From: a virus
DNA length: 64,000 nt
Virus record (IMG/VR): IMGVR_UViG_3300025849_000009
Direction: 5' to 3' (one strand)
Positions 3,041-55,600 of this stretch are shown here, piece after piece (positions within the stretch are counted from its first letter, which is position 1; the number at the start of each line of letters is the position of its first letter). The notes beneath the pieces are model-generated. The model worked only from the letters and a program-made list of their open reading frames with translations, had not been told where the DNA came from and did no database searches. The position numbers were made by a program, and so were the translations under genes.

Positions 3041-3379
3041 TTACATTCCAGCAAGCGGGTCATCGCTCTCTCCTTCACCGCCTTCTTCTTCCTTTTCAGC
3101 TTCCTTTTCAGCTTCGGCTTCTTCTGCGGATTTGTCTAAATAATAACCTACCAGAATGTCCATTTCGCCCTCTGCAAAAGCAGCTTCGCCGTATGTTTCA
3201 TAAAAATACTGCTTAAATTCTTCATCAGTTAATGCAGCTGTAATAGCTCCTAATATTTCAGCAGATTTAATATCAGGACCAGAATCTAACTTTAAATCGT
3301 CGATTATGACTTTAGAATCTTCTCCAGCTCTAATCGCGTCTTCAGATATGAAGTCACTAAATGTTTTGATAATTTTCAT
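3041..3379 (-). CDS. Small acidic head/prohead core protein with a capsid-targeting-like N-terminus
   Basis: MKIIKTFSDFISE start; located between portal and protease, where T4 has gp67/gp68. Confidence 0.55.
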   Translation of the reverse strand: MKIIKTFSDFISEDAIRAGEDSKVIIDDLKLDSGPDIKSAEILGAITAALTDEEFKQYFYETYGEAAFAEGEMDILVGYYLDKSAEEAEAEKEAEKEEEGGEGESDDPLAGM

Positions 3380-17063: not shown

Positions 17064-18272
17064 TTAAAATAATGCCGAAGCATATATTAGATTAGTATCT
17101 AGTGTTTGTAAACCTATTGCGGTGAGTACTCTATTTAGAGGGTCAATCATCGCCTTTTCAAATTGAGTATCATAATCTACTTTGGGTGCTATTTCATAAG
17201 GGTGTTCGTTTGGCATAAAAGCATATACTTCACTAATTTGTCCTATACAATTGTATATTTTAAGTTTTTCACCATTAGCAATAAGTTTATATTTGTTTTT
17301 ATATTTTTTATTGTTATTTAAAATATAATTGTAATATCCTGCGGCTTTTACATTAGCTGGACATTTTAAACCTATTTGTAATTCTTCTTGATCATCGATG
17401 ATATATTTGTCAATATTATTAGTTCTTTTATTAAACGCAATATCATCAATGTCTGCTAATTTAAATTCCTTTTTACACTGCTTCATAAACTCAACCAATT
17501 GTTGTAATTCTTTTGCTGATGGTTGAATCTCTGATGAAAATAAAATTCTAAGTGCTTCTACTAATTTCTCTCTAGCAAACTTAGGGGTTGAAGATTGAAT
17601 TGTATCAAATCCAATAGTTTTTACTTTTTTCAATGAAGGGTGGCGTTCAGTTACTTCTAATTTATCATCCCATGCTAGATTTTGAATGTATTTCTTTTTA
17701 GACATCCAAATACCATTATACGCCAATGATTCTAGTTCAAAGAATAAGAAATTATCTGTGTTTCTTTTCTCTGCATATTTTTCCATGGTTTTAGATATGT
17801 AATCTTTTAATCTAAATGCATAAAACGCTAAAATAAATTCATCAATTGGTAATTTTTTATCTTCTTCTGACCAGATTATAGATTCATATAAATCTTGAAA
17901 CTGCACATAACATGAATCGGTATCAATATAAATTACTGCAGGTTTTTCAATTTTACCTTTTACTTTGATGTTGAATTTCTCATGAACTGCAGTATCTTTG
18001 TGCCAAAAATCATTAACATATTTGTTAAGAATTGTTTCGGAATAAAGAATTGCATTCTTACCTTGTTTGGTAATTGATTCAGCAATGTCAAGATTAAAAA
18101 AGTGAAACCATTTATTACCGAATGCTCCATAAATAGAGTTAAGAGTTAACTTAACGGCTTGCTCATATGCCGTAAATTTGGCAGACAGCTGCTTGTAGTG
18201 GTCTACAAGCAGCTTTGCCTCATCATCTGTAAGTTCTTCAATTGATTTTTGTTCTAACTCTTCTATTGTCAT
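17064..18272 (-). CDS. gp43: Family B DNA polymerase, C-terminal subunit (second finger helix, palm, thumb)
   Basis: KLTLNSIYG (motif B), YIDTDS (motif C), KKKY. Confidence 0.92.
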   Translation of the reverse strand: MTIEELEQKSIEELTDDEAKLLVDHYKQLSAKFTAYEQAVKLTLNSIYGAFGNKWFHFFNLDIAESITKQGKNAILYSETILNKYVNDFWHKDTAVHEKFNIKVKGKIEKPAVIYIDTDSCYVQFQDLYESIIWSEEDKKLPIDEFILAFYAFRLKDYISKTMEKYAEKRNTDNFLFFELESLAYNGIWMSKKKYIQNLAWDDKLEVTERHPSLKKVKTIGFDTIQSSTPKFAREKLVEALRILFSSEIQPSAKELQQLVEFMKQCKKEFKLADIDDIAFNKRTNNIDKYIIDDQEELQIGLKCPANVKAAGYYNYILNNNKKYKNKYKLIANGEKLKIYNCIGQISEVYAFMPNEHPYEIAPKVDYDTQFEKAMIDPLNRVLTAIGLQTLDTNLIYASALF

Positions 18273-21926: not shown

Positions 21927-23330
21927 TTATTTTTTTATTTTTTTTTCTAGTTCATAAGCCTTCTCATAATACGCGTATGAAGTCTTTTTGTAATCTTTTC
22001 TTTGAGAATATAAATCACTTAAAATCTTTTTTAAGATTGAATCTTCCTTTTTATAGACAACACCATTCTCACAAACAATTACGTTTTCATCCTTTCTTCT
22101 TTCGTTAATTTCAGGTTCAGTTACCTGTTCAATGAAAGATTCTGGTGAAATGTTAAACTGTCTCATTATTGATGGATATAGTGAAGCAAAATCAAATGCA
22201 CTTACTCCAGAATAATACCCTACAATTGGTTGTTTTACAAATGCGCCTTCGAATTTACCTTCTTTAAGAGAATCTGCCTTTCCATATTCTACACCTATTT
22301 TCTTATTAGTTTCAGCTAATTTTCTTGCCAACAAAGATTCTGTGATAGCCACGGGTGAAGAAGCTTTATAAAGAGGCATTCTAGTAATAGTTGCTAATGT
22401 TAAAAGAACTTCCATTGATCTTAATTGTTGATCAATATAATATACTAAACACGAATCAATTACATTATAATAAATATATTTAGTAAAATCATTTTCATAT
22501 AAATCCTGTAATGATCCACTGTATTTAATTTTATTAATATCTAATACTGCACCTGAAACAAAATCTAATGAGTTTGATTCTTTTACTGCAACTGAACGAT
22601 CATATTTATCATATAATTGCATATAATCGAGAATACCCATGTGAAGTGGTCTACTATCATTTCTATCAAGTGATCCAGTAATAGCCACATCGTTCAGGTC
22701 GATCTGTAATCTTTTACATCTGTTGACTATATATTGCCAGTCATAGTTTATAAAGTTCCACCCTGTCATCATTGGGAATTTGGGTAGAAACTTATGAAGA
22801 AATGTATATAACATATTATACTCATTATCAAACTTATGATATGAGAATTCCCAATCTTGATCGTAATTCTTTAAATATTCGTTAGTATCATCATTGATCT
22901 TTTTTACTTTATCATGTGGCATATCTTCTAAACCTAATACGATTGCTTTGCGTTCAGGTGTAATGATAGAAAATGATAGGATTCTACTTTTAGCTTCTTC
23001 TGGTTTTGGAAAACCGTCTATGATTTCTGTTTCAATATCGACAAAATATGTTCTTGGCATATTGAATTCATATATTTCTTCTTTGTCTTCTTCGGGCAAA
23101 GAATCCATAAAATATAATAAACTAAATTTGTTAAATGATTTAGCGAAACCTCTTTTAAGTGGACGATCATCCCAGTTTCTATATGTTTTGTCTTTGTATT
23201 TGTCTGTTTCTTTAGTGACTACCCAATTTTGAAATTGATTAACACCGTATCTTTTGAATGAGACTTTACCTTCTTTATTATAGTAAGATATAATTAACTC
23301 ATTACTAGTTTGTTCAATGTCTAATAGCAT
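21927..23330 (-). CDS. gp43: Family B DNA polymerase, N-terminal subunit (3'-5' exonuclease, motif A, first finger helix)
   Basis: DIETE, GWNFINYDWQY, YNVID, FDFASLYPSIM; ends just after YSQRKDYKK. Confidence 0.92.
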   Translation of the reverse strand: MLLDIEQTSNELIISYYNKEGKVSFKRYGVNQFQNWVVTKETDKYKDKTYRNWDDRPLKRGFAKSFNKFSLLYFMDSLPEEDKEEIYEFNMPRTYFVDIETEIIDGFPKPEEAKSRILSFSIITPERKAIVLGLEDMPHDKVKKINDDTNEYLKNYDQDWEFSYHKFDNEYNMLYTFLHKFLPKFPMMTGWNFINYDWQYIVNRCKRLQIDLNDVAITGSLDRNDSRPLHMGILDYMQLYDKYDRSVAVKESNSLDFVSGAVLDINKIKYSGSLQDLYENDFTKYIYYNVIDSCLVYYIDQQLRSMEVLLTLATITRMPLYKASSPVAITESLLARKLAETNKKIGVEYGKADSLKEGKFEGAFVKQPIVGYYSGVSAFDFASLYPSIMRQFNISPESFIEQVTEPEINERRKDENVIVCENGVVYKKEDSILKKILSDLYSQRKDYKKTSYAYYEKAYELEKKIKK

Positions 23331-29677: not shown

Positions 29678-29708
29678 AAAAAAAAGCCAAACAAAAAAAT
29701 GTTTGGCT
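29678..29708 (-). terminator. Intrinsic terminator ending the internal-protein cluster
   Basis: AGCCAAACA-TTTTT-TGTTTGGCT followed by a T-run. Confidence 0.8.
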
Positions 29709-29734: not shown

Positions 29735-30355
29735 TTATCCGTGTTTCTTAACTATTTTTGTTAATTCATCTAGAGATTTGCTAACATGCTCTCCGAAATC
29801 TGCATGTAAATCATCATCAGTATCTAAAGGTTGCATATCTTTCCACTCTGTGTACTTAGCAATAAAGGCTTCACTTGCATCTACTATTTTTTTAATATCT
29901 GATTTTGCATAATCCTTTCCATAGTAACTATTAGGATCTACATCTTGTCTTGCTGTTTCGTCAGTAAATGGATTTTTAATATCGATACCCTCGTAATCAA
30001 AGCTAAATGCCTCAAATGTTTTTAAATGTTTCATTTTTTTATTTCTTTTCTTTTTCTTCTTGTATTCTTCTTCGGCATCACCTTGGCCAGCCGGCACATC
30101 ACCTGAACCTATTGTTCCATTTCCAGGTAATACGATTGGTCCCATTCCAGAAACATTAGCTATTCCAATATTTTCTTCTACATATTGTGGAAGGCCATCG
30201 TGTTTTGTACTTGCAAAATCTTTGAGTTGTTTAAGAGTCATTGAATCTGCTAATTCTTGTACTTCGGCACTAGCATCTTTTGGATCTAGTTCACCCTTTT
30301 TTAAAGCATATGCCATGCCCATTAATCTTTGTTGTGACTTACTTACAGAAGGCAT
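29735..30355 (-). CDS. DUF3008-like N-terminal domain plus a module with an internal KHLKTFEAF motif
   Basis: MPSVSKSQQRLMG..SMTLKQLKDFASTKHDGLP. Confidence 0.65.
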   Translation of the reverse strand: MPSVSKSQQRLMGMAYALKKGELDPKDASAEVQELADSMTLKQLKDFASTKHDGLPQYVEENIGIANVSGMGPIVLPGNGTIGSGDVPAGQGDAEEEYKKKKKRNKKMKHLKTFEAFSFDYEGIDIKNPFTDETARQDVDPNSYYGKDYAKSDIKKIVDASEAFIAKYTEWKDMQPLDTDDDLHADFGEHVSKSLDELTKIVKKHG

Positions 30356-30356
30356 A

Positions 30357-30896
30357 TTATTTTTTATCTATTTGAATAACTTCAGTATCTCTAATTTCAA
30401 GATTGTTATTACCAACTGATGCATCGTATTCACCATAAATAAGATCTCTCTTACCTGCTAACGGAGAATTCATCATTCCAATCTTATCGATTTTTCTTTT
30501 GAATTTTGAGCCATTAACATCATCCATAAAGCCTACGTTAATTACTACCTCGTATGAAAGATATAATGTATCTGAATCTGGATTATTTAAACCATTAACC
30601 TCATCTATAGCGAATCCATTAAAAAGATTGGCAGTAACAAATAAGATACCATCCATGCCACCTGCTCCTTTTTCTACTTGATCTAAAATAATCTTCTTAG
30701 CTGTATCTTCAAACTTAGCCCATTCTTTATTGACTTCTTCTTGAGTCACTACATTAATACCTTCGTATTTTACTGTTTTAATTTCTTGTCTAAACGCTTG
30801 CATTACTTTGCCCACCAAACCTTTTGCGGCATAGATACCAGTCATTCTATATGACTTCTCGTTTAAAAATGCTTCGAATAATTTTACGTGTTTCAT
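30357..30896 (-). CDS. Putative internal head protein
   Basis: MKHVKLFEAFLNE N-terminus; late promoter upstream. Confidence 0.6.
   Translation of the reverse strand: MKHVKLFEAFLNEKSYRMTGIYAAKGLVGKVMQAFRQEIKTVKYEGINVVTQEEVNKEWAKFEDTAKKIILDQVEKGAGGMDGILFVTANLFNGFAIDEVNGLNNPDSDTLYLSYEVVINVGFMDDVNGSKFKRKIDKIGMMNSPLAGKRDLIYGEYDASVGNNNLEIRDTEVIQIDKK
30867..30896. repeat. 30-bp repeat encoding MKHVKLFEAF (also 31688-31717; 27 bp at 32818-32844)
   Basis: aaatgcttcgaataattttacgtgtttcat identical between copies. Confidence 0.85.
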
Positions 30897-30906
30897 GATT
30901 TGTTTA

Positions 30907-30938
30907 TTTTTTATGTGTTATTATTTTATTATATATCT
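30907..30938. repeat. 32-bp promoter/leader repeat containing GATATATA (identical at 40550-40581)
   Basis: ttttttatgtgttattattttattatatatct at both sites. Confidence 0.85.
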
Positions 30939-30942
30939 GTTT

Positions 30943-31717
30943 TTATTCGTACATGCTAAGACCTTCATCATCTTCTAGAAGTTTAGCCAATTTGACAGCA
31001 TCTTTGGCTTTACATAATGTACCGGAATATATGTGATGCAAGTAACATACCTTTCCACTTATAGATGGAAATGTCAGCATCACCATGCGGGTCTTCATCA
31101 CCAAAACCGTCTAGTGAAAAAGATTTAACCCCTTTACCTTCTTCCTCTACTATTTCAGGGAAGTATTCACCTAACCAGACTAGATCTCCTAGATCTGCCA
31201 CACCGAAGGCTTTTAATACCGGCTCCCATTTAGCTTCTGCTTCAGGACCACCTAGACCGTTGTCTCCACTTTCTGATAAAGGTAGAAAATCACTAACCTT
31301 ATATGTTTTAGCTTTCTTTTTCGTATATTCCCACTGGCCTCTGTAAATTCTGTATTGCCCCGGCATATAACTTATATTTGCGTCGTTGCTTTTGTCTAAT
31401 GGAAAACCATGCTCCTTTTGATGAGTTGACATTGCTTTCTTATCGTCTTTAGGTTCCCATACATTAATAGTGTCATAACCCATATCATGAGAGGTTCTGA
31501 TTCTAATTAAAACGCCATTGAAATCATAATCCATTACCTTTAATCCCTTAGACGGGCTCCAAATAAGAAGTCCGGATTTCTTCAGTTGGTCATAAGCTTT
31601 TTTAATTCCGATTCCGGAAGCCATAATCTCTTCGATTCCGTCTATTAGTGGCCCATGGAAGCCCTCGTTTAATTTCTGTGAAGCTACAAATGCTTCGAAT
31701 AATTTTACGTGTTTCAT
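30943..31717 (-). CDS. Putative internal head protein, apparently frameshifted near 31030
   Basis: MKHVKLFEAF..LNE start; track ORF stops at 31010 but another frame continues YSGTLCKAK...SMYE to 30943. Confidence 0.55.
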
Positions 31718-31745
31718 AATTTTATATTTTTGTTTTCATGTTTTA

Positions 31746-32189
31746 TTAATCTAGTGATCCATGTTTTCCTGAAGACATTGCTTTTCCAAAATTATCGCTA
31801 CGTTCAGTTCTATATGAAATATATGCAGGATCGGAGTTGTGGTTTCTACCACCAGCTCCATAATATGATGATAACAAATAAGTGTGTATTACTTCGCCGT
31901 TATTATCAAATGCTTTATCTGCATCTTTAACTAATTTAACGACCTTGTTAATTTTTGAAGAATTAAAAGGGCCTTTAATCTCTGTTGATGCGGGGTTAAA
32001 AGAAGAAGTACCTGTTTGAACTTTAATAGATTCTAAAGTTTCAGGTATTCCTTTTATTAGCTTAATAAAATCTTTTAGGCTATCTGCAGAGCCTGCCCAA
32101 TCAGATTCTATTTTTTTGCCGTTAATAGTAGAATATGAATATTCTATTTTCTCGTTAACGTATTGTTTAAATAACTTTACATGTTTCAT
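31746..32189 (-). CDS. Putative internal head protein
   Basis: MKHVKLFKQYVNE N-terminus. Confidence 0.6.
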   Translation of the reverse strand: MKHVKLFKQYVNEKIEYSYSTINGKKIESDWAGSADSLKDFIKLIKGIPETLESIKVQTGTSSFNPASTEIKGPFNSSKINKVVKLVKDADKAFDNNGEVIHTYLLSSYYGAGGRNHNSDPAYISYRTERSDNFGKAMSSGKHGSLD

Positions 32190-32190
32190 T

Positions 32191-33279
32191 TTAGTGATTG
32201 TTCATTATATCTATTAAATTATTAGCTGTTCCATTATTAAAAGAATAACTTGAGTTTGTTAATCCAATTGTACTATAATTAGTACCTGATGAATAGTCAA
32301 ACATAACACCGCCGTCTGATGAATTATATTCATCTAGTACAAACATTAATTCATAAATTTCTTGAAACATTTTATCTTTAATTTTTGAATCAATTCCACT
32401 ACCACATGTGACTGCAATTAAAAACGTTCTTCTACCACCTGGGTTAAAGTTTGATCTGCCTTGAATTTGTCCACCAACAGTAGATCTCATTGTTCCAGAC
32501 CATCCGCCTGCTGCAGGGACTGAAGATTCCTCAGTTTCATATTTTTTATATTTCTTAATAACTTTAGAAATAGCTTCTGCTAGTTTTACAGCGTTTCTGC
32601 CCTGAAAAATGTCGTAAGAATCTTTTGCAGTATCACCTTGTACCATTAATGGTTCTTTATAACTTGGTAATTTACCTGATTTTAAAGTAGATTCAACAGC
32701 GTTTAAAATCCCACTGTATGAATCTCCCCATTTTTCTACTGCTATTTTAGCAAGCCTAAGCTTGTCTTCTAATTTAGCTTTAATTCCTTTTTTACCAAAA
32801 GACACTGCCTCGTTTACAAATGCTTCGAATAATTTTACGTGTTTAAGTTTATGCGTATTTTGAATTTTAGATTCATTTATATCCATACCGTCCCAATCCC
32901 ATTTGTAATGTTTACCATCAGCAGCAGTACCTAGATAACCATACATTCCTTTTTTAAAGCCATCAAAGAAAATGGCAGCACCATACTCTCCAAGTTCATC
33001 TTGAACATACTCTCTTGCACCGGCTTCATCAAATTCTTCTACAAAAACACCACCTTCTTCAAAGAAGAATAAAATTCCAGATCTTGTGTTAATTGAATCA
33101 CCCTCAAACCATGCGTCATTATCCTCGTCGTATGAATCTCCTTCATCATCTGGATCACCATACATGTCGAAACCCGACCATTGAGATATACCATATGCTA
33201 GTGCTTCTTTTTCTGTCTTAAAGAAATTCATTTGAGCATAATCTCCAGATCTTTCTCTTACGTAAAATATTTTTGCCAT
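32191..33279 (-). CDS. Two-module putative internal head protein
   Basis: N-domain paralogous to 33304-35253; internal KHVKLFEAFVNE. Confidence 0.6.
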   Translation of the reverse strand: MAKIFYVRERSGDYAQMNFFKTEKEALAYGISQWSGFDMYGDPDDEGDSYDEDNDAWFEGDSINTRSGILFFFEEGGVFVEEFDEAGAREYVQDELGEYGAAIFFDGFKKGMYGYLGTAADGKHYKWDWDGMDINESKIQNTHKLKHVKLFEAFVNEAVSFGKKGIKAKLEDKLRLAKIAVEKWGDSYSGILNAVESTLKSGKLPSYKEPLMVQGDTAKDSYDIFQGRNAVKLAEAISKVIKKYKKYETEESSVPAAGGWSGTMRSTVGGQIQGRSNFNPGGRRTFLIAVTCGSGIDSKIKDKMFQEIYELMFVLDEYNSSDGGVMFDYSSGTNYSTIGLTNSSYSFNNGTANNLIDIMNNH

Positions 33280-33303
33280 CGTGTTATTATTTTTGTTTGT
33301 TAA

Positions 33304-35253
33304 TTACCACGCGTAATCAAATGTTTTGATTTTATTAATTCTATCCTTGATATTCTTAGCATAGTTTTTAGTTTCTCTTTCGTACCAGCTTTCAGCTGCT
33401 CCATATCTTTCTTTAGATTCTTCGCCCTGTCTAACATAATCACAATATCTAGAATAGTCATCTAATATATTTGACATATGATTAGAAGCATCTCTTAATT
33501 TAACAACAGATCCTCTTTTGTTTGTTCCAATCATGATTTCACCATATTTGGTTTTCTCACCTTTTTTTAATCCATTTTGAATTTGTGCAGTTAATTCATC
33601 AATTGCATCTGAGACCATTTTATCTAGTGGCAATTTAGCCGCGTTGTTAGCTAAAATAGTTTCGTATCTTTTCTTATTTTCAGATTTAAAATCATCATGT
33701 GATTTAAATGCTGTAGCTCCTGATTTTGCTGCTGCTCTATCTGCTCTTTTATTTGCAGTTGAATACTTTTGTTGTAATAAATCAACGTTGATAACAATAG
33801 CTCTATCTGCAACTTCTGCAATTCTCTTTACATTGTAGAGTCCAGTTGCATCCCATCCTTTGTATTTTTTACCAATACCTATAGAATCTGTTGGATTATT
33901 ATCTACTGCTTTAAGGTTTCTATCTTTGTTTTTTCCACGGAATCGACTAGTCGATGACCAAACTTGATCATAGAATTTATTACCACCAGAAGTAACAGCT
34001 AATAAATAACCTCCACCTGGGATAGTTTTATTACTTACATATGCATCATAAGGTGCATGTGGATTTTCTTTTTCATTGTCTGAAATATAAAAAATAATAG
34101 AATTTGATTGTTTTGCTTTATATGCAGTTTGTGGGTCTGTAGTAATAAGATCTTCATCTTGTACTTTGTCTAATGCTACTTTAGTAGAACCATAAAATGC
34201 GCTTGCTAAATGTTTGTCTAATTTACCAGATTTTCCTCTAAATAATTCAGCAAGTCTTTGTGAACCGAATGCTTCATTAACTGTTGATTCGTTTAAAGAG
34301 TTAACAAACTCGCTAAATGATTCGTAAATAAATGTTGTTTTGTTTTTTGGTGTTTCCATTTTTATATTTGATGTATTTTCTTTTACTAATTTTGGATTTT
34401 TATTCAAAAGCTCTTCCATGTCTATTTCAGTTAATGACATAAAACTATTTTCTCCATACTTTTTAGATAATCTATCTGCTTTTTTAATGTCTATTACTTT
34501 AGATAAATCGTCATAATCTAAAGTTGCTACTCCAAATTCTCCAAACATTTCTTCCGCCATTGCGTTTGCAACTTTAAAAGGAGTTGCCTTCTCGTTAAGT
34601 GTAACCGCTGTTGATGGAATGATTGATTTTAATATTCTCATACCTGTTTTAGAAAGAGAGATACCATCTTCACTTACGTTAAAATACGCTGTGTTTCTTC
34701 TTAACCATCTTGTAGAATCAGTTGTCATTTCTTTAACAATACTTTTAAATTCTTCTTGGGAAATTTTACCATCTTTAACAGCTTCTAATACTTTATTTCT
34801 AATTTTAGCAGCTTTACCAACAGATTTTGCTGGATGGTTTTCAGTATACTTTCTTTTAACAATTATATTTCTTTCTTCTATAGATTCATTAACCTCACCA
34901 TCTTCAAATTTCCAGGTGTAACCTTTACCTTCTGCACCCTTTTTACTTAAAATCCCATACATACCTTTTTTAAAACTATCAAAGAAAAGGGCAGAATCAG
35001 CTTCTTTTTTTGTATATTTTCTTGCCTCTTTATCGCTATTATGCCCCTGGATGTATGCTCCGTCTTGCCATGTTAGTAAAATGCCAGTGATAGCGAAATC
35101 TCCTTCCCATCGTATATCTTTAACTCGGGCCCATTCCATTTCAAAGTCTGAAAATTGAGATTTGCCATATTTTAATGCTTCTTCTTTTGTTTTAAAGAAA
35201 TTGAACTGCTCACTATCTTTAGTTTTTTTACTTACGTAGTATATCTTTGCCAT
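33304..35253 (-). CDS. Multi-module putative internal head polyprotein
   Basis: Modules separated by VNE, LNE and ESFSEFVNSLNESTVNE linkers. Confidence 0.6.
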   Translation of the reverse strand: MAKIYYVSKKTKDSEQFNFFKTKEEALKYGKSQFSDFEMEWARVKDIRWEGDFAITGILLTWQDGAYIQGHNSDKEARKYTKKEADSALFFDSFKKGMYGILSKKGAEGKGYTWKFEDGEVNESIEERNIIVKRKYTENHPAKSVGKAAKIRNKVLEAVKDGKISQEEFKSIVKEMTTDSTRWLRRNTAYFNVSEDGISLSKTGMRILKSIIPSTAVTLNEKATPFKVANAMAEEMFGEFGVATLDYDDLSKVIDIKKADRLSKKYGENSFMSLTEIDMEELLNKNPKLVKENTSNIKMETPKNKTTFIYESFSEFVNSLNESTVNEAFGSQRLAELFRGKSGKLDKHLASAFYGSTKVALDKVQDEDLITTDPQTAYKAKQSNSIIFYISDNEKENPHAPYDAYVSNKTIPGGGYLLAVTSGGNKFYDQVWSSTSRFRGKNKDRNLKAVDNNPTDSIGIGKKYKGWDATGLYNVKRIAEVADRAIVINVDLLQQKYSTANKRADRAAAKSGATAFKSHDDFKSENKKRYETILANNAAKLPLDKMVSDAIDELTAQIQNGLKKGEKTKYGEIMIGTNKRGSVVKLRDASNHMSNILDDYSRYCDYVRQGEESKERYGAAESWYERETKNYAKNIKDRINKIKTFDYAW

Positions 35254-35278
35254 TGTGTTTTTTATATTTCTTTATATT

Positions 35279-37126
35279 CTATATATTCTTAATAAATTGA
35301 TCGAATGTTAGTGTTGCTATTTCAGTCTCTTCTAAAACTCCCATAGAATCTTCTAATTTAGATTTTAATTCATTATACATATCATGTATCGGTTTTGGTG
35401 TTAGCTTCTTAAATAGCTTCTCATCACCATCTAACATTGCATTTCTTACTTGTGTTGCTGATATATTCTTGCCAGTTCTTGGTATTTCATAAAGTCCAAA
35501 ATCAGTTCTAACTCCAAGATCTTCTCTATATTCTGGTTTATCTACTTGAAATCCATAAGTTTTCATTCTGTCACTTCCGGTTCCCCATAACACTGGTTCG
35601 TATTTTGGCCTCATTGCATTAAACATAGTGTCAATACCGCCCGTTGGAATTACAAAAACTTCTTCAATTGGATATTTAGATTTTAATCTATTAATCATTG
35701 CAACTTGAGTGTCCTCATCATAAGGTCTTTTAAATGCATCTTCTTTTTTCTTTTTCTTAGCCTTTACTAATAAGATTACGACCGGGTGACCATTTTGTTT
35801 ATGAATAGTTTCAACTACTTTAGCATGGCCCAACGTAAAAGGCTGAAATCTACCAACAAACATATTAACTAATTTCTTACCATGTTCTGGGTAATCTACC
35901 TTTAATGCTTCTAAAACAGGAGATTCATTATATTGTAATTTTTGATTTAACAGATATGACTTAAAATTAAGAACATCATTTTCATTTGTTTTTGCCATTA
36001 CTATTGCATCTATACTATCAACTATTTCATTGATCTGCGACATTAAATCTTTATTAATAATATCTGTTTCTTTGTTTCTCTTTTTTCTAAAACTACCCAA
36101 TGCTATTTTATACAATTCTGATAAAATGTCATTCTGTATTAATGATAGTGTTTTTTCATTTGTAATAAAAACTGGATTTAATTTAAAACTTTTGTTTTCT
36201 GAAAAATCCGCAGAATTAAAACTAGCTCCTACATATTTAGAAGCATTCTTTTCAATGTATGCATTAAAGATGTGTGAAATTAATTCAATGTATCGTTCTG
36301 CTGAATCTTCTGATTCTAAAGAAATTTCTTCAAGATTAAACTCTGTAATATACTCTACTAAATCTAATATTGCAATCTGATACATGTCAGATGGCTCTCT
36401 TTTTTTGGCATCCTTCCTGTCAAATCTTTCAAGTTTAAAACTTTTTTGATTTTTACCTTCATAGAAGTTTACTATTAAACCATCTATATCATTATCTAAA
36501 TTAGAATTTAACGTTGGATTATTAAGACCTATGTTAAATATATTAAATATAGCTCTTGTAAAAGATTGATCTTTGAATTTGATTTTAAAATCAGAATCAG
36601 AAAGTTCTAGTAATCTAATTAAGTCATCTTTTTGATTTGATTGTAAAACTCCTTGAAATATAACCGGAGGTTTTTGAACACCTAATAATTCTGACCACTT
36701 ATTTAAGACCTGTGGATCTCTAATAACTTTTTTGATTTGTGTGGGATTTTTAGGATTTAATATTTGTATATGTGTTAGTATTAAGTGATTTTTAGGAAGA
36801 CTTTCATATTCGATATCTACTGTCTTATTGTCAATCATGTAGTCAAATCCGAATTTCCAATCATGTGGCATATCTTCTTTTACATCTTTAGGAATAGCTT
36901 TAAAGTAATTGATACCATTTTCATAGTATCTTACCATAGTTCTATCTACTTTATCCATTTTATGTTTAGAACCACTTTTAAAATATTCATAACCAGTACT
37001 AGTGCTTTTAACATGAAACGAAGATGCTTGTATTTTTTCTGATACAACACATGTTAATTTCAACATTGAATTAAAATCATTAATGTTGGTTGATTGAAAA
37101 TATGTTCTTAAATTTTGTAATGCCAT
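35279..37126 (-). CDS. Degenerate RNA-ligase-like domain fused to a HIGH-family (cytidylyltransferase-like) nucleotidyltransferase
   Basis: SEKIQAS, DGLIV and FKL; GRFQPFTLGH, GSDR, ISATQVR. Confidence 0.7.
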   Translation of the reverse strand: MALQNLRTYFQSTNINDFNSMLKLTCVVSEKIQASSFHVKSTSTGYEYFKSGSKHKMDKVDRTMVRYYENGINYFKAIPKDVKEDMPHDWKFGFDYMIDNKTVDIEYESLPKNHLILTHIQILNPKNPTQIKKVIRDPQVLNKWSELLGVQKPPVIFQGVLQSNQKDDLIRLLELSDSDFKIKFKDQSFTRAIFNIFNIGLNNPTLNSNLDNDIDGLIVNFYEGKNQKSFKLERFDRKDAKKREPSDMYQIAILDLVEYITEFNLEEISLESEDSAERYIELISHIFNAYIEKNASKYVGASFNSADFSENKSFKLNPVFITNEKTLSLIQNDILSELYKIALGSFRKKRNKETDIINKDLMSQINEIVDSIDAIVMAKTNENDVLNFKSYLLNQKLQYNESPVLEALKVDYPEHGKKLVNMFVGRFQPFTLGHAKVVETIHKQNGHPVVILLVKAKKKKKEDAFKRPYDEDTQVAMINRLKSKYPIEEVFVIPTGGIDTMFNAMRPKYEPVLWGTGSDRMKTYGFQVDKPEYREDLGVRTDFGLYEIPRTGKNISATQVRNAMLDGDEKLFKKLTPKPIHDMYNELKSKLEDSMGVLEETEIATLTFDQFIKNI

Positions 37127-38409
37127 TATCTTCCGTATTTTATGATACCCATTAATTGATTAATGGCTGCAAACGTACCTGTTAATTTCATTGTTTTTCC
37201 TTTGTACACAAAAACTATTCCTTCAGTTGGTATAATAGATTCTATTCCTCCAATTCTGTCTAACCTAGCAAGTTCAGCTTCAACCTTTGCGATCTGAGCT
37301 GCACCTCCTGTTTTCTTAATACCTTCAGCTTCTGTTCTTATTTGATCGTGCAACCTTTGCATTTCAGCATCTGGGTTTGCTGCAACAAAATTAGAAGCAT
37401 TCTTAAGGATAATAGAACCCAATTCTAAGAATAAATCCTCAAATGGTCTAATGTTTTCCTTGTATTTTTTCTTAACATCTTCTTTATCAAATTTCTTAAT
37501 AAGAGATGCTTTATCTTTACCTAAATCTTTGTCTAATGATCTTAAGTTTAGTGTCTTTTTATCACCATACGCCCATCTTAAAAGAAGTCCTTCTTTATGA
37601 TCTTGTTCTAAATCAGAAAAGTTTGTATCAATAGTTTCTCTCCACCACATTTCGTGATATCTTGAAACTTGATCATCATCTGATAAACCATAACGATCTC
37701 TTAGTGATTCTACTTGTTTGATAAATTTAGCTTTGTTCTTTTCAAAATCTAAATCTTTTCCTATTTTAATAACTTGAGGTGGAATTACTGTAAATGTTTT
37801 GCCAACATTAATTTTAAGATCTTGCATTGCTTTAGCGATTGATCTTGCTGGTTTGTTATCATCTCCAATAGTATTACCTTCACCGTCAGTTTTCTTTATA
37901 CCATGAAATTGAATAACATCACGATCATAATAGATTACATTAGGATTCTTAGAGTAAATTAACTCCATATTCATAAAGTTTTTACCATTATCAAAAACTT
38001 CTAAATCTTTAGGGGATAATTTATTTAACGAGCTTGCTAAATCTTCTGCAGCAAATTGAAAAGTATCTTGTACTAATGGACTAGCATGTCCTTCAAACTT
38101 ATTCTTAAAAGTAGCAAGGTCCATTGGATTTGCTAATTCAGTTTTATTTCTGGCAAATTTTACTTCTCCATCTTGAACTGTTGCAAATACATTTTGACCG
38201 TCAGTTTTTTCAGTTGCTTCTTCTTCGAAGTTTAGTTCACCATATAATCCTGCTTCAATAATTTTCTTAAAATCACTAAATGTTAAATCTTTCTCATCAA
38301 ATGGATGTGACATGTGACCTGCTGCACCACCTTCTAAAATAAGAGATTCTGGTACACTAATATGTAGTCGTTCAGTTATAAATTCATTAAAATTAGTAAA
38401 GATCTTCAT
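37126..38409 (-). CDS. ATP-dependent ligase-fold protein (DUF6267-like)
   Basis: GHMSHPF, EKTDGQN (KxDG), EGIVF, KLTG. Confidence 0.7.
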   Translation of the reverse strand: MKIFTNFNEFITERLHISVPESLILEGGAAGHMSHPFDEKDLTFSDFKKIIEAGLYGELNFEEEATEKTDGQNVFATVQDGEVKFARNKTELANPMDLATFKNKFEGHASPLVQDTFQFAAEDLASSLNKLSPKDLEVFDNGKNFMNMELIYSKNPNVIYYDRDVIQFHGIKKTDGEGNTIGDDNKPARSIAKAMQDLKINVGKTFTVIPPQVIKIGKDLDFEKNKAKFIKQVESLRDRYGLSDDDQVSRYHEMWWRETIDTNFSDLEQDHKEGLLLRWAYGDKKTLNLRSLDKDLGKDKASLIKKFDKEDVKKKYKENIRPFEDLFLELGSIILKNASNFVAANPDAEMQRLHDQIRTEAEGIKKTGGAAQIAKVEAELARLDRIGGIESIIPTEGIVFVYKGKTMKLTGTFAAINQLMGIIKYGR

Positions 38410-38429
38410 AAGGTATTTATCTTGTTTTA

Positions 38430-40538
38430 TTATTGTCCCAATGAGCTAGTTAACATACCAACTGCAGTACCATAATCTCCATCTGCTTTAGATAAAATAC
38501 CGTCTATAACTTTTTTAGCTTTGGTTTTGTCAAAATCCTCTCCAAATGCTTTTTGCAAAACAGTTATCGCATATTCTTCAAATTCTTCATCCGAATTAAC
38601 TTCTGATTCAGTAACTACTGATTCAAAGTAATCTTCATAATCAGAAACTGAATCCGGACCCCATACATCAGCTAAGACCTTTTCAATATCTTTTCTTTTA
38701 CCAGTTAATTTAACTTCAGGGTAACCATGGTCTCCTTCTTCTTTTTCAACTTCCATTTCAACCCTGTTCTTCTTTAAAGATTGAACTAAAGGTTTGAATT
38801 TAGTTGGGTGGATGCCATCGTCGTTTCCAAATTCTATACCTGAAAGAGAGGCTTCAGTAACTACTGATTCATTGTATAAATGAACATAGTTTTTATTTTT
38901 CTCAGAATAAACTGATTTGATTTCAAATTCTTTTTGTCCTTTTGTATAATATGCTTTAAAGAATAAATTTTCATCAAACTCTCCAAAGAAATGATCTGAT
39001 TTACCGATAAAGAATTCAGCGTTTGGATAAATTTCAAGAACCTCTTCTTTTGTAGTTGCCTTTAAAACCGCGTTATCAAAGTCTTTTACGAATTTAGCTT
39101 CTGTGACTGATTCACTTAATGAATTTCTTAGACCACAGTGTGTACATTCTACTGTTCCATCTTTATCAATTTGCTTATATAGGTGTCCTTTTCTATTAGT
39201 ACACTTAGGTTCGTCTGATTCAGTAACTACTGATTCTTCAATAGTAGCCTCATTATAACTTACAATATCAGAATATTCAATTTCATGTTCTTCTCCGTCT
39301 TGGTCCAATGCAAATATTGTTTTATCTCCCCACATGTCATCATTACTATCGTTGCCATTACCATATGCATAAATAACATACTCTTGTCCGTTTCCTAATT
39401 GAATCATACCATCATCAGCTTTCATAGCTTTCATTAAAGACTTTTTATTATATGATTTCTCATTAAGCGCATCTCCTTCGTCATATGCAAATGACTCAAA
39501 CATATTAAATGCATTTAGTAAAGCTTGACCTGATGCTTCTTCTTTAATACTCTCTAAATAAAGAGCAGTACCTTCAACAATCCCAATTCCTGACCAACCA
39601 GCTGCATTTGCAAGATCACTATAGTGTTTGTCTAAAATTCTTTTTGTAGTAGTAGCACCGATTGTTAAAAAGTGATTACCTAAACCTGCTACTTTTAATT
39701 CAAATGAACCTATTCTACCTTTAATGTTCTTAGATATAACTTTTTCTCTATGAAAGTTAGCATCTGTCATTGCTTCTTCGAAAAGATACTTAATACAACC
39801 TAATGTGCCTACTTTATCCATTGCACCAAAATCTGTTAGTTTCTTAGTAAATAAATTTTTATAGACGGTTAAAACTTTTTTTGCATCTCTTTTATATTGA
39901 ACTGAAATAGCTTCATTTACTGAAGTAGTTAAAGATTCAAATGCTGGATAAACATCATCATATCCTTTACCGTAAATATCTGCCATTAACCATTCTTTAT
40001 TAGCTTCATCCCATAAATATACAAATTCGGCACCGCCATCATTTGCAACATCTCTTAAATATTTAGATATATTGGCAACTTTACCTTTAGATGCTGTAAA
40101 GTTTCCATAATAATTCATCCCTGTTGGATCAGCTTCTAAACCTGAATTATCTCCATTTTTAAGAACAATGTTTAGCGGTGAGCCACCCTTTAAATATGTT
40201 TTCTTAATAAGCGGTAACACGTTTTCAGGATATGAATCATAATGCATGTATACAGAAGTGATATTTCCTCTTTTGTCAATTTTACCAATTTGTCCTCTAG
40301 TTCCTTCTTCGATTAAAACAACAGCTTCATTAATCTCAGCTCCTCTTAATTTAGTAAAAAACTCAATTCTTTGCTCTTCGGTTAATTCTTTGATAGAAGT
40401 AACTTTAAATTCACTAAGTAAATTTTTATACGTTTCTGCTTCAGTAGTTCTTTTAGTAGAATTTTCTTCTTCTATTTGCCTAGATCTATTGATTTGCGAT
40501 TCAGTTGAAAACTGATCAAAAGATTTTAATTTATGCAT
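38430..40538 (-). CDS. Modular internal head polyprotein with repeated ESVVTE linkers
   Basis: KLKSFDQFSTE N-terminus; about 8 unrelated modules separated by xNE/ESVVTE linkers. Confidence 0.65.
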   Translation of the reverse strand: MHKLKSFDQFSTESQINRSRQIEEENSTKRTTEAETYKNLLSEFKVTSIKELTEEQRIEFFTKLRGAEINEAVVLIEEGTRGQIGKIDKRGNITSVYMHYDSYPENVLPLIKKTYLKGGSPLNIVLKNGDNSGLEADPTGMNYYGNFTASKGKVANISKYLRDVANDGGAEFVYLWDEANKEWLMADIYGKGYDDVYPAFESLTTSVNEAISVQYKRDAKKVLTVYKNLFTKKLTDFGAMDKVGTLGCIKYLFEEAMTDANFHREKVISKNIKGRIGSFELKVAGLGNHFLTIGATTTKRILDKHYSDLANAAGWSGIGIVEGTALYLESIKEEASGQALLNAFNMFESFAYDEGDALNEKSYNKKSLMKAMKADDGMIQLGNGQEYVIYAYGNGNDSNDDMWGDKTIFALDQDGEEHEIEYSDIVSYNEATIEESVVTESDEPKCTNRKGHLYKQIDKDGTVECTHCGLRNSLSESVTEAKFVKDFDNAVLKATTKEEVLEIYPNAEFFIGKSDHFFGEFDENLFFKAYYTKGQKEFEIKSVYSEKNKNYVHLYNESVVTEASLSGIEFGNDDGIHPTKFKPLVQSLKKNRVEMEVEKEEGDHGYPEVKLTGKRKDIEKVLADVWGPDSVSDYEDYFESVVTESEVNSDEEFEEYAITVLQKAFGEDFDKTKAKKVIDGILSKADGDYGTAVGMLTSSLGQ
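38607..39236. repeat. Three identical 18-bp in-frame repeats encoding ESVVTE (38607-38624, 38853-38870, 39219-39236) and one degenerate copy (39099-39113)
   Basis: ttcagtaactactgattc read directly. Confidence 0.88.
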
Positions 40539-40571: not shown

Positions 40572-42080
40572 TTATATATCTCCTTCAAAATCTACATTTT
40601 TTACATCATATTTAAATTTCTGTTCCTTGTAGATCCTTTGCCTTTCTTTGGAGTGTCTTATTAGGTAATTATCCCAATCAGGGGAACTTAAATCATCTAC
40701 AAAATCTATAATATTAACCGAGTCTTTAGAGCTATGTTGCCTTAAACCCCTACCAATAGATTGTCTAATAATTACTTCTGATTTAAATGATTCTGTGAAG
40801 AATATGTTGTGAATTTTTTTGATGGATATACCAGTTGAGAATGTACCATATGAAGCGACAATGACGACTTGGTTTCCAGCTTCCATTTTCTTTTTGTGTT
40901 CTTCTCTAATATCTTTATCAATTCCACCATCAACATAATAAACGGATTTATCACTCTCCTGTCTGAGCTTTTCATATATTTTTTTGCCATGTTCAATTCT
41001 ATGAAAAAGAACTAAACTATTACCCTTAACCCTAGATATAATACTTGTTATAAAATTAAGCCTTCCAGGTGAATTGATCACATAGTTTTGCTCAAATTTA
41101 AAAACGTCTTTACTTTCATATCTATTCTGAGACATTTCTCTAAATGCGTCTTTTGTAGATTGAGGTGCATAGTCCATTTTAATTACCTTTACTTTACACC
41201 CTGCGATGTGTCCTTCGTTTTGTAAATAATGTGCACTTATTTCTGTAATTAATGGACCAGTATATGCCATTAACGTTAATCTATCTAACGTGCCTTCTTT
41301 TGGAATAGTTCCAGATAAACCATATTTATAATCTGCATTAATACATTTTTGTAAAATAGTTTTAATAGAGGCTGATTTTGCTTTGTGTGTTTCATCAACA
41401 ATTACTGCATCAAATTCTTCAAAATATGCTTTATCTTTTTTAACAAGTGATTGATATGTCCCAATAATGACATTTCTACCTGCCCTTAATTTTTGACCAC
41501 TATATATTTGTTGTACTTTAATATCTATTGCGTTTCTATAATTATAGTCTAAAAAATCTTCACTAGCCTGTACAACTAATGATACATTAGGTACAATAAA
41601 TAAGATCTTTTTTGCTTTTTGTTGTTCTAGTAAATATGATACTGTTAAGAATGATATTAGTGTTTTACCTGCAGAAGTTGCAAGCTCACTTAAACATCTT
41701 CTAAATTTTAGTATATTAAATGCTGCCTCTATTTGATAATCTCTTGGAGTTATCTCTGACTTTTCGAAAAAGTCTAAAGCCCATTTTGTAAATTTTTCTT
41801 GATTAATATTGGTATCAAACATGTCAGTAATACCATTGAGTTTAAACTCAAATTTATATTCTTTACATATTTGCATGACTTCTCTCCATAATCCTGAAGG
41901 AATCCATTTATCGTCTTTTATATATGAAACATATCCATCCCATAAACCCTTTTTAACCAAAGGATTAAATCGCCATGAATCAATTCTTCTATTTAAAGAA
42001 ATATTGAGTTGTTCCAGTTCTAATTCAGTTGCTTCATCAATACGTAGCAGCTGTTTGTTTTCAGTTAAACTAAGCTCCAC
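40572..42080 (-). CDS. uvsW: SF2 helicase UvsW
   Basis: PRDYQ, ATSAGKT, DETH, GLSGT, STGISIK, QSIGRGLR. Confidence 0.93.
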   Translation of the reverse strand: MELSLTENKQLLRIDEATELELEQLNISLNRRIDSWRFNPLVKKGLWDGYVSYIKDDKWIPSGLWREVMQICKEYKFEFKLNGITDMFDTNINQEKFTKWALDFFEKSEITPRDYQIEAAFNILKFRRCLSELATSAGKTLISFLTVSYLLEQQKAKKILFIVPNVSLVVQASEDFLDYNYRNAIDIKVQQIYSGQKLRAGRNVIIGTYQSLVKKDKAYFEEFDAVIVDETHKAKSASIKTILQKCINADYKYGLSGTIPKEGTLDRLTLMAYTGPLITEISAHYLQNEGHIAGCKVKVIKMDYAPQSTKDAFREMSQNRYESKDVFKFEQNYVINSPGRLNFITSIISRVKGNSLVLFHRIEHGKKIYEKLRQESDKSVYYVDGGIDKDIREEHKKKMEAGNQVVIVASYGTFSTGISIKKIHNIFFTESFKSEVIIRQSIGRGLRQHSSKDSVNIIDFVDDLSSPDWDNYLIRHSKERQRIYKEQKFKYDVKNVDFEGDI

Positions 42081-45781: not shown

Positions 45782-46150
45782 TTACAGTTTTTTACCTAGA
45801 GCAGCACCTAATGCGGCGCCTACAAGTCTAGAAGTTAGTAAATCATAAAATACACCTTTTTGGATACCAAGAACTTTTGCTAGCATTTTACCAATAGATT
45901 TCCCTAAAGCAAAACCTGTAAGTCCACCAATAATCGATCCAAAGAAACCTTCATTAGTCATCTCTTCATTAAGTCTCTCAATATCATAAGAACCATCTTC
46001 GTTTTGATATTCTGAGGCAAAAGATTCTAACGCCGCATCTATTTTCTCTTCTAACTCTGGAGTCCAAGTTTCTTGAAGTCCCTCATTAATAAGTTCTAAA
46101 TCCTGTTCGTTAACAGCGTTTTCAATTAAATATGTATTAAATGTTTTCAT
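45782..46150 (-). CDS. Putative virion protein: targeting motif, acidic pro-region, glycine-zipper membrane segment
   Basis: MKTFNTYLIE...TNE-GFFGSIIGGLTGFALG...GAALGAALGKKL. Confidence 0.6.
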   Translation of the reverse strand: MKTFNTYLIENAVNEQDLELINEGLQETWTPELEEKIDAALESFASEYQNEDGSYDIERLNEEMTNEGFFGSIIGGLTGFALGKSIGKMLAKVLGIQKGVFYDLLTSRLVGAALGAALGKKL

Positions 46151-52624: not shown

Positions 52625-55600
52625 TTATGACTTTATTTTTATCATAGGTTTAATGTCGTAAGAATATCCTAATCTTTTATTATATATCAATCTAAAATTC
52701 ATAGGCTTTTGTTTATGAGATTTAAATCTAAAATTATTATCCGGTGTAAATCCACCAGCACGAATATCTTCATATATGTTTATTATCGATGAAGGTCTTC
52801 CTTTAAAATCCCTGGTATACAGCGATATAGAATCTACCACAAATTTTTCAATAATATTATTATTAATATAGAAGTTTGCATCATCAACTAACGTTGTTTT
52901 ATCTCCAGCTGAATCTTCAACATTCACATATTTATTTATTACATCAAACACTCCGTCATTTCTTAGCAACCTAGTGGCAGCATCAGTAATATAAAAATCT
53001 GCAACTATTTGTTTTTCATCCTCAAACATAGTTACTTCAGTTTTATTTATACCATTCTTTAAAATAAAATCTAAGTCTTCTTGGCTGTCTACACTCTGAT
53101 ATGTAAAAGAAGTAATGTCATACTCATTTTTAATTTTCATCGCGGTAGATCCAAGATAAGATTTTTCTTCAGTGTTATCTAGCGTTCCCGGTATATCCTC
53201 TGATTTACCACCAGATAGTGCCCTAGTGTAATAATTTGCATCCCACGAAGATCTAAATACATTCACATCTTTTTTAGAAATAGCAATTTCATTAATAAGT
53301 GGATATAATGGTAATTTATCGGAAGACTCTGATAGTTTAGTGATACCGTTTGGATTTATTTCATTTACCTTGTGATAAAAATGATTTTTTATAATACCCC
53401 AACTAGAATCATGGATGTTGTTGTCTATGATAAGTCCCACATTAAATGTAGTACCACATCTATTATATCTGTTATAATATGATTTAGCAGTTTTTAATTC
53501 ATATGAATCATTCATAGCATGCCTGTATAAAAATGACTCAAATTGAGCTTCTCTATTGTCTACTGTAGCCTGTACTCTATTAGATTTAAAATGAGTATAC
53601 ATATCAGTAAATGTAACAACAGGTTTAAATCCTACGGTATATGATCCACTGTGTCTTATTAAGAATGGATAATATTCTGCATCATTTGATTTAATCAAAT
53701 TATAACCAATAATACCTTTAAATAATTTAAAACTCTTTGGTTTATCATTATCTTCTTCTACAGAAAGGGTCGCATATTTTATAATTTCATTTCCATCTTC
53801 AAAATTAATAGTAAACCTATTTGTGTTTATTTCTCCATCTTCCTCTATTGTAGTATATTTAACACTATCATCATTTAAGTTTATCATTTCTGCAACACTA
53901 TTAATAGATAGTTTTTCTAAAAGAACTTTGTGTATATTTGTTCCACCATCTTTATAGTAATATTTTATTTTACTTTGTAAATAGTTGGGTAAAAACTCTA
54001 CATCTAGAATATCAGATGGATCATTCACATTTACAGGTTTCCCTTGTACTTTAATAATATTATCACCTTCTACAGTGTAAATTGAAAACTTATAAATTGT
54101 ATTTCCAGGAGTTTCAGGATATAAGTCCATTAAAACATCACCATATAATCCATTTTCTCCTAATAAAATTTGATCATCGAAATTAGGCATACTTCCGTCA
54201 ATATGAGGAATACCTTCTATTGTAAATGGTAATTCCCCTGAAAAATCAGCTTGGTTCCAATTTAGCGCACCATCAAACGAAGTGTTGGCATAAATATAAT
54301 CTTCACCCGCATGATCATATACGATTTTGTGATTTAATTCATATAATAGTTTTCTATTCATGTTTCCTTTCACCCAATAATCGCTAAGATTCATTGTAAT
54401 AAAAAAGATTACATACTTAAACTTCTTGTTTTGAATAACTTCAAATTCTATATCATTTGTTTCAGTGTCAGTATTTGTTTTTAATAAAATACTAAATTTA
54501 TAACCATTAAATTCACTACTTTTAACAAAATCAAGTGCAGTTTTATTTGCAAATTCTTTTCTATTTTTTAATACAACTTTTAAACCTTTGAATATAGTGT
54601 TAGCAAAAGCATTTGTATCACCGCCATCTATCAATGTATATTTTTTCTTTAATTCTGTTTTAAAGAACGTATTATTAATATCATCAGGGTTTAAATAACC
54701 CTCTGTGTATTCTCCGAATTTTTGAAATATAGATTCTAAATCTTCCTGATTTAGATTTTTTTCAAATCCTTCAGAAATCATAAATTTATCAAAATAATTA
54801 TTTTTAGTACTTTTGAATAAATCAGATGTTAATTCAAAATCTTCAATAAAGTTTACATATGAAAAACCTTGGTTTAATTCGTCGTATCTTAAATACTTTG
54901 GATTTTTATCCATGTAAAACCATTCATGTGTCATGTCATTTTTATTACGACCAATTGCACTTAAATCAGGGGAGAAATTAGTTCTACCAAACGCTTCGTT
55001 AGTATTTAAGTAGTATGGTTGTTCTTTAACATTTAATGAATCTTTTAGAACCCACTTGTTAATATTAGGAACAACTCTAGATTTAGTAGCAAATTCTTTT
55101 AATTCGTTTTCTTTTAATCTATCAAATTCACTTGTAATATTTTCAGATAATTCTTCGTCGATAGTTTCTTCAGATAATATTCCGGATAAATTAGAAAAAT
55201 AATCAACAGGTTCTAGTGCATAATTATCATCAAATATGTCACTGGCAGCTAATATTGAATTAAATTCAGATGTGATTGGATCTATATTTAATATAGCGCT
55301 TTCATATGGTTCGTAATTTATATTGCTTCTTGTTTCTAAAGAAAGTTCCTTTAAATTAGAATTTGAAGTGTCATAAAAATCAAAGTCCATGTCATATAGA
55401 TCATACACCGAGAACAAACCAACATGTACTATATTGTTATTAAAGACCCTTGCTTCTCCGTCATTAATATCTGAATCTAAAGACAATATTATTTTAGATC
55501 TAGTAGAGTTAACAGAATCAATATCTTCGACAATATCTAAAACTTTGTTGTAAATACCTTTATAATTAGTTTCTAAATAATCACCAACTGATATTTCACT

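Follow-up and report, generated by a model that had tools for sequence, protein, structure and literature searches.

A candidate capsid-targeting tag on a variable protein island of an uncultured T4-like marine phage

The internal proteins of T-even phages are diverse and have only a capsid targeting sequence in common (PMC3012670, PMC4122927). In phage T4, suppressor mapping assigned residues 4 and 7 of this sequence (Y and F) to targeting and residues 8 and 10 (I and E) to processing (PMC9026906). In the T4 record AF158101, the propeptide has 10 residues in IPII and IPIII and 19 residues in IPI, where it ends in I-T-E. T4 Alt is a precedent for large enzyme cargo (PMC9026906, PMC5694885), and C-terminal processing is known from Alt and gp21 (PMC9026906). 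Capsid targeting of this kind is so far known in detail mainly from Alt and a handful of small T-even proteins. Here we analysed a 64,000-nt stretch of viral DNA (IMG/VR record IMGVR_UViG_3300025849_000009, hereafter the window), in which nine consecutive co-directional genes (positions 29735-40538, minus strand; the island) encode proteins that share a short tag resembling the T4 sequence.

An earlier note on this DNA had proposed that the island encodes a packaged, protease-matured and variable set of proteins carrying a capsid-targeting-like signal. The signal was supported by its agreement with the mapped T4 positions, a gp21-like protease, a tagged gene in the gp67 slot, a cut motif in the major capsid protein (MCP), a promoter-like motif common to island and head genes, and a hyperplastic locus. 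The part of the proposal that stands, at the level of sequence, is a T4-type tag on variable proteins; packaging, cleavage, delivery into the host and any anti-defence role are what we infer. We consider it probable that this distant T4-like phage has expanded a T4-type capsid-targeting and protease-processing system to a locus of modular cargo, which would correspond to the internal-protein loci of T4 on a larger scale. No published description of such a system outside the T-even phages was found in the literature.

The tag and its distribution

The tag consensus is M-K-H-[VIL]-K-L-F-E-Q-F-[ILV]-N-E. Its core consists of two aromatic residues three apart followed by hydrophobic-x-Glu, and it matches the T4 capsid targeting sequence at all four mapped positions. 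Every island protein has at least one copy, and all the instances described in the earlier note were confirmed at their positions in these minus-strand genes. The tag is N-terminal in five proteins (179, 235, 147, 427 and 702 amino acids, aa), internal in three (206, 362 and 649 aa) and C-terminal in one (615 aa). Likewise, the two genes ending at positions 3379 and 46150 were confirmed to begin with the tag, as had been claimed. Tag-initial genes were 5 of 9 in the island and 2 of 49 elsewhere in the window (Fisher p = 5e-4).

Two sets of relatives were analysed, 80 IMG/VR contigs fetched via UvsW (80-99% identity) and 78 relatives fetched via the protease; open reading frame (ORF) calls were mechanical. 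In the 80 relatives, a loose N-terminal pattern matched 297 of 439 island ORFs vs. 95 of 969 ORFs outside the island, and a strict pattern 151 of 439 vs. 82 of 969, nearly all of the latter being orthologues of the gene ending at 46150. The Glu three residues after the second aromatic was present in 93 of 151 non-redundant leaders (62%), although it was outside the search pattern. In related 235-kb records the strict N-terminal pattern gave 18-19 matches in ~7 clusters, all on the coding strand, while a reversed control pattern gave none. The IMG/VR records behind the contigs L178, L181 and L194 (~235 kb each) look like circular permutations of one jumbo phage genome.

Among 161 distinct tag-coding sequences the amino acids are kept, with conservative substitutions (F/Y, I/L/V), while synonymous codons vary freely at the conserved positions, so that selection acts on the peptide. 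A loosely defined F-x-x-F/Y anywhere in a protein is not specific, and occurs in many other window proteins. What makes the internal tag copies credible is their match to the N-terminal leaders of homologues encoded as separate genes in relatives; in one case the DNA is shared as well. Tag amphipathicity was only modestly above that of shuffled versions and is minor evidence.

Cut-like sites, head genes and a shared promoter-like motif

The motif [LIV]-[NT]-E-[AS], which resembles a protease cut site, was found 11 times in the island against 0.8 ± 0.9 expected from shuffles. Outside the island there were 7 copies in 17,180 window residues. Four of them are divided between the protease-scaffold protein and residues 1-27 of the MCP, and these are kept in relatives. 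Tags and linkers have this motif in common with the N-terminus of the MCP and with the boundary of the protease; its copies in the MCP are candidate maturation sites. In proteins with terminal tags, the cut-like site is generally located between the tag and the folded part.

A T4-type head module and a gp21-family prohead protease, both looked for as components of a T4-type capsid-targeting system, were present within the window. The window carries the N-terminal part of a gp23-like MCP (2-772, minus strand), related to T4 gp23 by BLASTP, whose propeptide contains the sites L-L-N-E-A and G-I-N-E-S. Both are kept in relatives, and the first is also retained in the uncultured 462-kb phage LR756500. 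Beside it, a 699-aa protein (885-2984, minus strand) joins a gp21-like prohead protease (phrog_207, E = 4.7e-44; BLASTP against T4 gp21, E = 4e-9) to an acidic scaffold-like tail. This protein has 32 [LIV]-x-E sites, and an R-V-N-E-[SA] site directly follows the protease domain in 72 of the 78 relatives. The tail comprises ~500 residues, is very acidic (pI 4.2) and contains repeated Y-[ILV]-A-E units. A similar 632-aa protease-scaffold protein is encoded by LR756500, while T4 has gp21 and gp22 as separate genes.

Two tagged genes outside the island were also informative. The first encodes a 112-aa protein (3041-3379, minus strand) and occupies the gp67/gp68 slot, with the portal gene on one side and the protease gene on the other; the protein is small and gp67-like, with an acidic tail, and the gene immediately upstream of the protease begins with the tag in nearly all of the 78 relatives. 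The second encodes a 122-aa protein (45782-46150, minus strand) with an acidic pro-region dense in cut-like sites and a hydrophobic Gly-rich C-terminus. Its tag is in the exact T4 register (aromatic, aromatic, hydrophobic and Glu at residues 4, 7, 8 and 10) and is retained by its orthologues in nearly all of the 80 relatives. This gene lies behind the promoter-like motif described next.

The promoter-like motif G-ATATATAA was found 11 times in sense and never in antisense orientation in the window, and 207/0 and 242/0 times (sense/antisense) in relatives. Copies are distributed window-wide (e.g. at 873, 3390, 5030, 30936, 40579, 51207, 52687 and 60711) and lie upstream of the MCP, portal, gp67-slot and tail-fibre-like genes. 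One copy (40572-40580, minus strand) precedes the first island gene, where it is a likely late promoter, and a second (30929-30937, minus strand) precedes the 179-aa gene; ~30 nt of upstream sequence are common to these two copies. In relatives the motif is found upstream of 71 of 77 homologues of the 702-aa gene and of 59 of 63 MCP genes. We read G-ATATATAA as a late promoter because it is strand-specific and lies upstream of both head genes and the island; from this distribution it is probably the late promoter of the clade, distinct from T4 TATAAATA. Sigma-70-like promoter sites were not enriched in the island. The island is flanked by uvsW and by an intrinsic terminator (29685-29708, minus strand) consisting of a 9-bp stem with 4 G-C pairs followed by a T-run.

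We suggest the following mechanism. Late in infection, island and head genes would be transcribed from one type of promoter. The tag would form a short amphipathic helix, with its two aromatics three apart, and dock the product onto the scaffold core during prohead formation. A hydrophobic-x-Glu site between tag and mature domain, typically [LIV]-[NT]-E followed by A or S, would be cut by the gp21-like prohead protease, which would remove N- and C-terminal tags and separate the modules of fused polyproteins. The mature domains would stay in the head until infection and then leave it together with the DNA. In addition, the conserved DNA encoding tags and linkers probably provides recombination joints at which cargo is shuffled between related phages. 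The sequences and models directly show the anatomy of the island, the motif statistics, conservation, shuffling and the two enzyme folds; docking, cleavage, virion retention, ejection and a function of the cargo in the host are all inferred steps.

Payloads, fusions and turnover of the island

The island products have, in order, 702, 427, 615, 649, 362, 147, 235, 179 and 206 aa (~3,500 residues in total), and all nine genes are on the minus strand. The first is a modular polyprotein (702 aa, 38430-40538) with an N-terminal tag at residues 1-13 and modules connected by E-S-V-V-T-E and x-V-N-E linkers. It has six [LIV][NT]E[AS] sites. Its linker DNA is repeated, two of the three copies being identical and the third 83% identical (repeat D5). 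Homologues range from 423 to 765 aa and, in alignment, have modules inserted, lost or permuted at E-S-V-[VN]-[NT]-E linkers.

The 427-aa protein (37126-38409), also tagged at residues 1-13, is predicted to have an ATP-dependent RNA-ligase fold of the Rnl1/Trl1 type. Its AlphaFold2 model has a pLDDT of 90, and the top structure matches were all RNA ligases (Naegleria RNA ligase, Z 9.8; Trl1, Z 8.9; T4 Rnl1, Z 8.5), with alignments spanning 172-204 residues. Residues E67, K68, D70 and G71 of motif I (K-x-D-G) are invariant in this predicted enzyme. By sequence, no match was found in the PDB. Cut-like sites are sparse within the folded ligase domain (0.9 per 100 residues).

The tag is an add-on to this domain: distant homologues align from about residue 19, and in the AlphaFold2 model the tag is a detached helix (residues 7-15, the only helix in the low-confidence segment 1-30). 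The homology to a protein of Microcystis phage Mel-JY01 begins at residue 19 of the 427-aa protein, and there the domain lies behind a fused nucleotidyltransferase; and among 150 diverse representatives of the ligase domain the match started nearly always at residue 10-25. Most of these diverse homologues are proteins of 600-1900 aa that end with the ligase domain, often directly preceded by an x-N-E-[SG] junction, and several homologues of roughly domain size begin with the tag. Some long relatives (P0137, P0155, P0158, P0188 and others) carry N-L-x-I-x-x-H-S-I-N-E-S-K-G upstream, which is HNH-type nuclease-like.

The 615-aa protein (35279-37126) consists of an N-domain, an NMNAT-like HIGH nucleotidyltransferase (residues 419-595), a cut-like site and a C-terminal tag formed by the last 10 residues (35282-35311). 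The C-domain was assigned to nucleotidyltransferases by Pfam, PDB and NCBIfam, and is modelled as a Rossmann-like fold with a G-x-F-x-P-x-T-x-G-H motif. Its best structural agreement was with archaeal NMNAT (Z 15.3, rmsd 2.5 over 153 residues); NadD and PPAT scored only slightly lower (Z ~14). Scores against the NCBIfam equivalog models were far under their cut-offs, and the substrates of NMNAT, NadD and PPAT are all candidates for this predicted enzyme. When the 615-aa model was searched by fold, matches of the NMNAT-like domain took up the results, so that the search covered this domain only. The idea that the N-domain is a pseudo-ligase was unsupported, as profile comparison with the ligase family showed no relationship. 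The ligase and NMNAT-like domains are conserved across all relatives and into LR756500.

The earlier note had regarded internal and C-terminal tags as unusual. Both placements have an ordinary explanation: internal tags result from fusions of tag-initial genes, and the C-terminal tag mirrors the N-terminal layout behind a cut-like site. The 649-aa basic protein (33304-35253) has a mobile N-domain, a V-N-E-S joint, a core, an internal tag (residues 311-322, 34288-34323) and a C-terminal half. Its residues 313-649 match a stand-alone, tag-initial 353-aa gene in one relative (L020), and residues 123-649 correspond to a stand-alone 533-aa gene in another (L006). The 362-aa protein (32191-33279) starts with the same mobile N-domain, followed by an I-N-E-S joint, an internal tag (residues 145-157, 32809-32847) and a payload; its residues 145-362 are a stand-alone, tag-initial 218-aa gene in a third relative (L010). 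The partners to which [LI]-N-E-S joins the mobile N-domain differ. One relative encodes this domain as a separate protein, with a cut-like site and then a tag at its C-terminus. Similarly, the C-terminus of the 615-aa protein retains in relatives a hydrophobic-x-E-S site, a short spacer and the tag, and in the model residues 596-606 are disordered and precede a helix at 608-614.

The remaining genes are smaller. The 147-aa protein (31746-32189) has an N-terminal tag encoded with different synonymous codons, the 235-aa protein (31010-31717) a longer N-terminal tag of 18 residues ending in L-N-E, and the 179-aa protein (30357-30896) an N-terminal tag. Tag-coding DNA (~30 nt) is identical in the 179-, 235- and 362-aa genes (repeat D1). 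The 206-aa protein (29735-30355) consists of a DUF3008 domain (PF11450, E = 1.8e-10), a Lys-rich linker, an internal tag with retained Met (residues 108-117, 30005-30034) and a short C-terminal domain. Lys-rich stretch and tag are both retained in the DUF3008 family; in some members the tag forms the very end of the protein, and the LR756500 member has a C-terminal tag-like motif. Searches of Pfam, PHROGs and NCBIfam left the 179-, 235-, 147-, 362- and 649-aa proteins without a family; the only match among them, Peptidase_C25, was sub-threshold and was disregarded. No known fold or family was found for the 649-aa protein, for which ESM Atlas leads were all sub-0.9 and our own model was poor. 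An anti-defence role of the cargo is a reasonable guess, drawn from the T4 precedent.

The locus is highly plastic. Across the 80 relatives the island comprises 61 protein families, 32 of them tagged, so the same tag is borne by mutually unrelated mature domains at a locus that varies between close relatives, a feature looked for as a mark of a T4-type system. In LR756500 the same island follows uvsW. The tag and linker coding repeats are probably recombination joints.

The window derives from an uncultured T4-like marine phage with a GC content of ~31%, and all its genes are on the minus strand. PHROG and Pfam scans also identified portal, gp2, gp4, the late sigma factor gp55, gp46/47, gp41, UvsX, a split gp43, ribonucleotide reductase (RNR), gp32, primase and UvsW. 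The portal shares 55% identity with its LR756500 counterpart and 31-37% with the portals of other huge phages, Lak phages, Sphingomonas phage PAU and Tenacibaculum phage PTm1. Marine metagenomes, including Tara, often contain homologues of the island proteins, on contigs of up to ~250 kb. A megablast search with the island revealed no DNA relative among GenBank phages, and tblastn with the 649-aa protein gave no match in the same phages. No tRNA genes were found in the window. DNA polymerase matches fell in two ORFs (17064-18272 and 21927-23330, minus strand), ~3.6 kb apart and separated by the RNR genes and a 247-aa ORF. A 2679-aa ORF (52625-60664, minus strand) lies behind the promoter-like motif, and its sole PHROG match is a family without assigned function; a 1025-aa ORF is located upstream of it. 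In T4 (AF158101, 108.6-114.4 kb) the neighbours of uvsW are inh (prohead protease inhibitor), hoc and rnlB (RNA ligase 2), which loosely resembles the position of uvsW here, beside head-related cargo that includes an RNA-ligase-fold gene.

Alternative explanations and comparison with known systems

Several observations weigh against an expanded capsid-targeting system. The island is located in the replication module, outside the head module, and G-ATATATAA is also found ahead of a few non-structural genes, such as that of the RNR small subunit. The 702-aa family tag has Ser or Ala, not a hydrophobic residue, three positions ahead of the Glu, and the 206-aa protein has no clear cut site after its tag. 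The mature domains are mostly acidic or neutral (pI 4.9-5.7 in 6 of 9), unlike the basic IPII and IPIII of T4. Moreover, ~3,500 cargo residues per gene set would need to fit in the head. Finally, GenBank phage DNA and protein searches and the portal comparison found no cultured close relative.

The best placed of the alternatives, which we nevertheless regard as unlikely, is that the tagged proteins are only prohead core or scaffold, targeted and cut but there to help assembly or occupy space, and then degraded or expelled at maturation instead of delivered as working effectors. The gp67-slot protein, which has the same tag, is plainly of acidic core type, many island proteins are acidic, and the protease-scaffold and 702-aa proteins are both rich in [LIV]-x-E sites. 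However, well-folded enzyme domains with intact motifs, conserved into LR756500, are hard to square with filler, and the scarcity of cut-like sites within the folded ligase domain points the same way. The fast turnover of small payloads, too, resembles that of T-even internal proteins, some of which are anti-defence (PMC3012670, PMC4122927).

We find it somewhat harder still to believe that the tag serves in sorting, docking or regulation by way of a partner other than the capsid, such as a membrane site, a replication hub, a chaperone or a cytoplasmic protease. The island does lie among replication genes, the N-terminal, internal and C-terminal placement is like that of a short linear docking motif, and the similarity to T4 spans only ~9 residues. 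By contrast, a head-module gene between portal and protease also carries the tag, the cut motif is common to the MCP propeptide and the C-terminal boundary of the protease, the head genes have the same promoter motif, and no other protease or hub gene was found to co-vary with the island in the 80 relatives.

Very improbable is a DNA-level cassette (promoter or translation start plus first codons) spread by recombination with a functionless peptide, in the manner of the documented PeSL (early promoter plus stem-loop) shuffling (PMC2839356, PMC4122927): the identical ~30 nt of tag DNA in three window genes, the ~30 nt of upstream sequence common to two genes and the repeated linkers of the 702-aa gene would fit, but codons vary under constant tag residues, tags also occur at C-terminal and internal positions far from starts, the repeats lack a stem-loop terminator except at the island end, and recombination at tag and linker sequences fits, and is part of, the capsid-targeting explanation itself.

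We retain the expanded T4-type system as the preferred explanation. A bolder version is tentative and, in our opinion, rather doubtful: tag plus linker would be plug-in units, at once capsid address, cut site and recombination joint, with which a widespread marine jumbo clade strings together, swaps and releases dozens of cargo modules whose enzymes act at DNA entry. A packaged RNA ligase or NMNAT-like enzyme might then, for example, mend nuclease-cut RNA or offset NAD-depleting defences before phage expression. If packaging is true, capsid targeting would be a general and expandable delivery system in abundant ocean phages, and the tag would provide a sequence-only route to list candidate injected proteins of uncultured phages. 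Such a list would be a rich source for counter-defence functions, and the new tags and protease sites could be used for loading foreign proteins into capsids.

Among known systems, the Dar antirestriction proteins of phage P1 are also packaged in the head, injected and active against host defence, and the term capsid targeting sequence has been used for them. P1 is a different phage type with hierarchical Dar loading, and to our knowledge no cleavable tag shared by many families is known there. The PeSL cassettes are similar to this locus in that short conserved boundary sequences appear to mediate gene insertion, deletion and replacement (PMC2839356, PMC4122927). They differ in the repeated unit, which here is coding (tag or linker) or a late-type promoter motif and not an early promoter with a stem-loop. 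No early promoter plus stem-loop was found between the shuffled genes, the only convincing coding-strand terminator being that at 29708-29685.

In the giant phages phiKZ, 201phi2-1 and SPN3US, as proposed here, many proteins inside the head (ejection and inner-body proteins) are processed after Glu by a gp21-related protease, with [S/A/G]-x-E or A-x-E as the recognised site (PMC5694885). Paralogues of the phiKZ type can share conserved N-termini, and their propeptides have been proposed to be like the T4 capsid targeting sequence (PMC5694885). However, several phiKZ-type propeptides are more than 100 residues long, a small residue is found there three positions before the Glu where it is hydrophobic here, and no short shared tag has been described in phiKZ-type phages. 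The phiKZ lineage is unrelated to the window phage beyond protease, portal and MCP.

The closest comparison is with T4; the system described here is one predicted from sequence. Most tags here are three residues longer at the N-terminus than those of T4, and their Glu usually follows Asn or Thr. Here nine genes (3.5k residues) are in one island, with dozens of families across relatives; the cargo is often acidic, tags are also internal and C-terminal, multi-module polyproteins have repeated cut-like linkers, and the protease is fused to a scaffold-like protein. As in T4, there are a gp21-family protease and gp20/gp23-type head genes, the mature domains are unrelated to one another, and the loci differ among relatives. 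As in T4 IPI, IPII, IPIII and Alt, a short N-terminal tag with an aromatic pair is followed by hydrophobic-x-Glu, and the 18-aa tag of the 235-aa protein resembles the 19-aa propeptide of T4 IPI.

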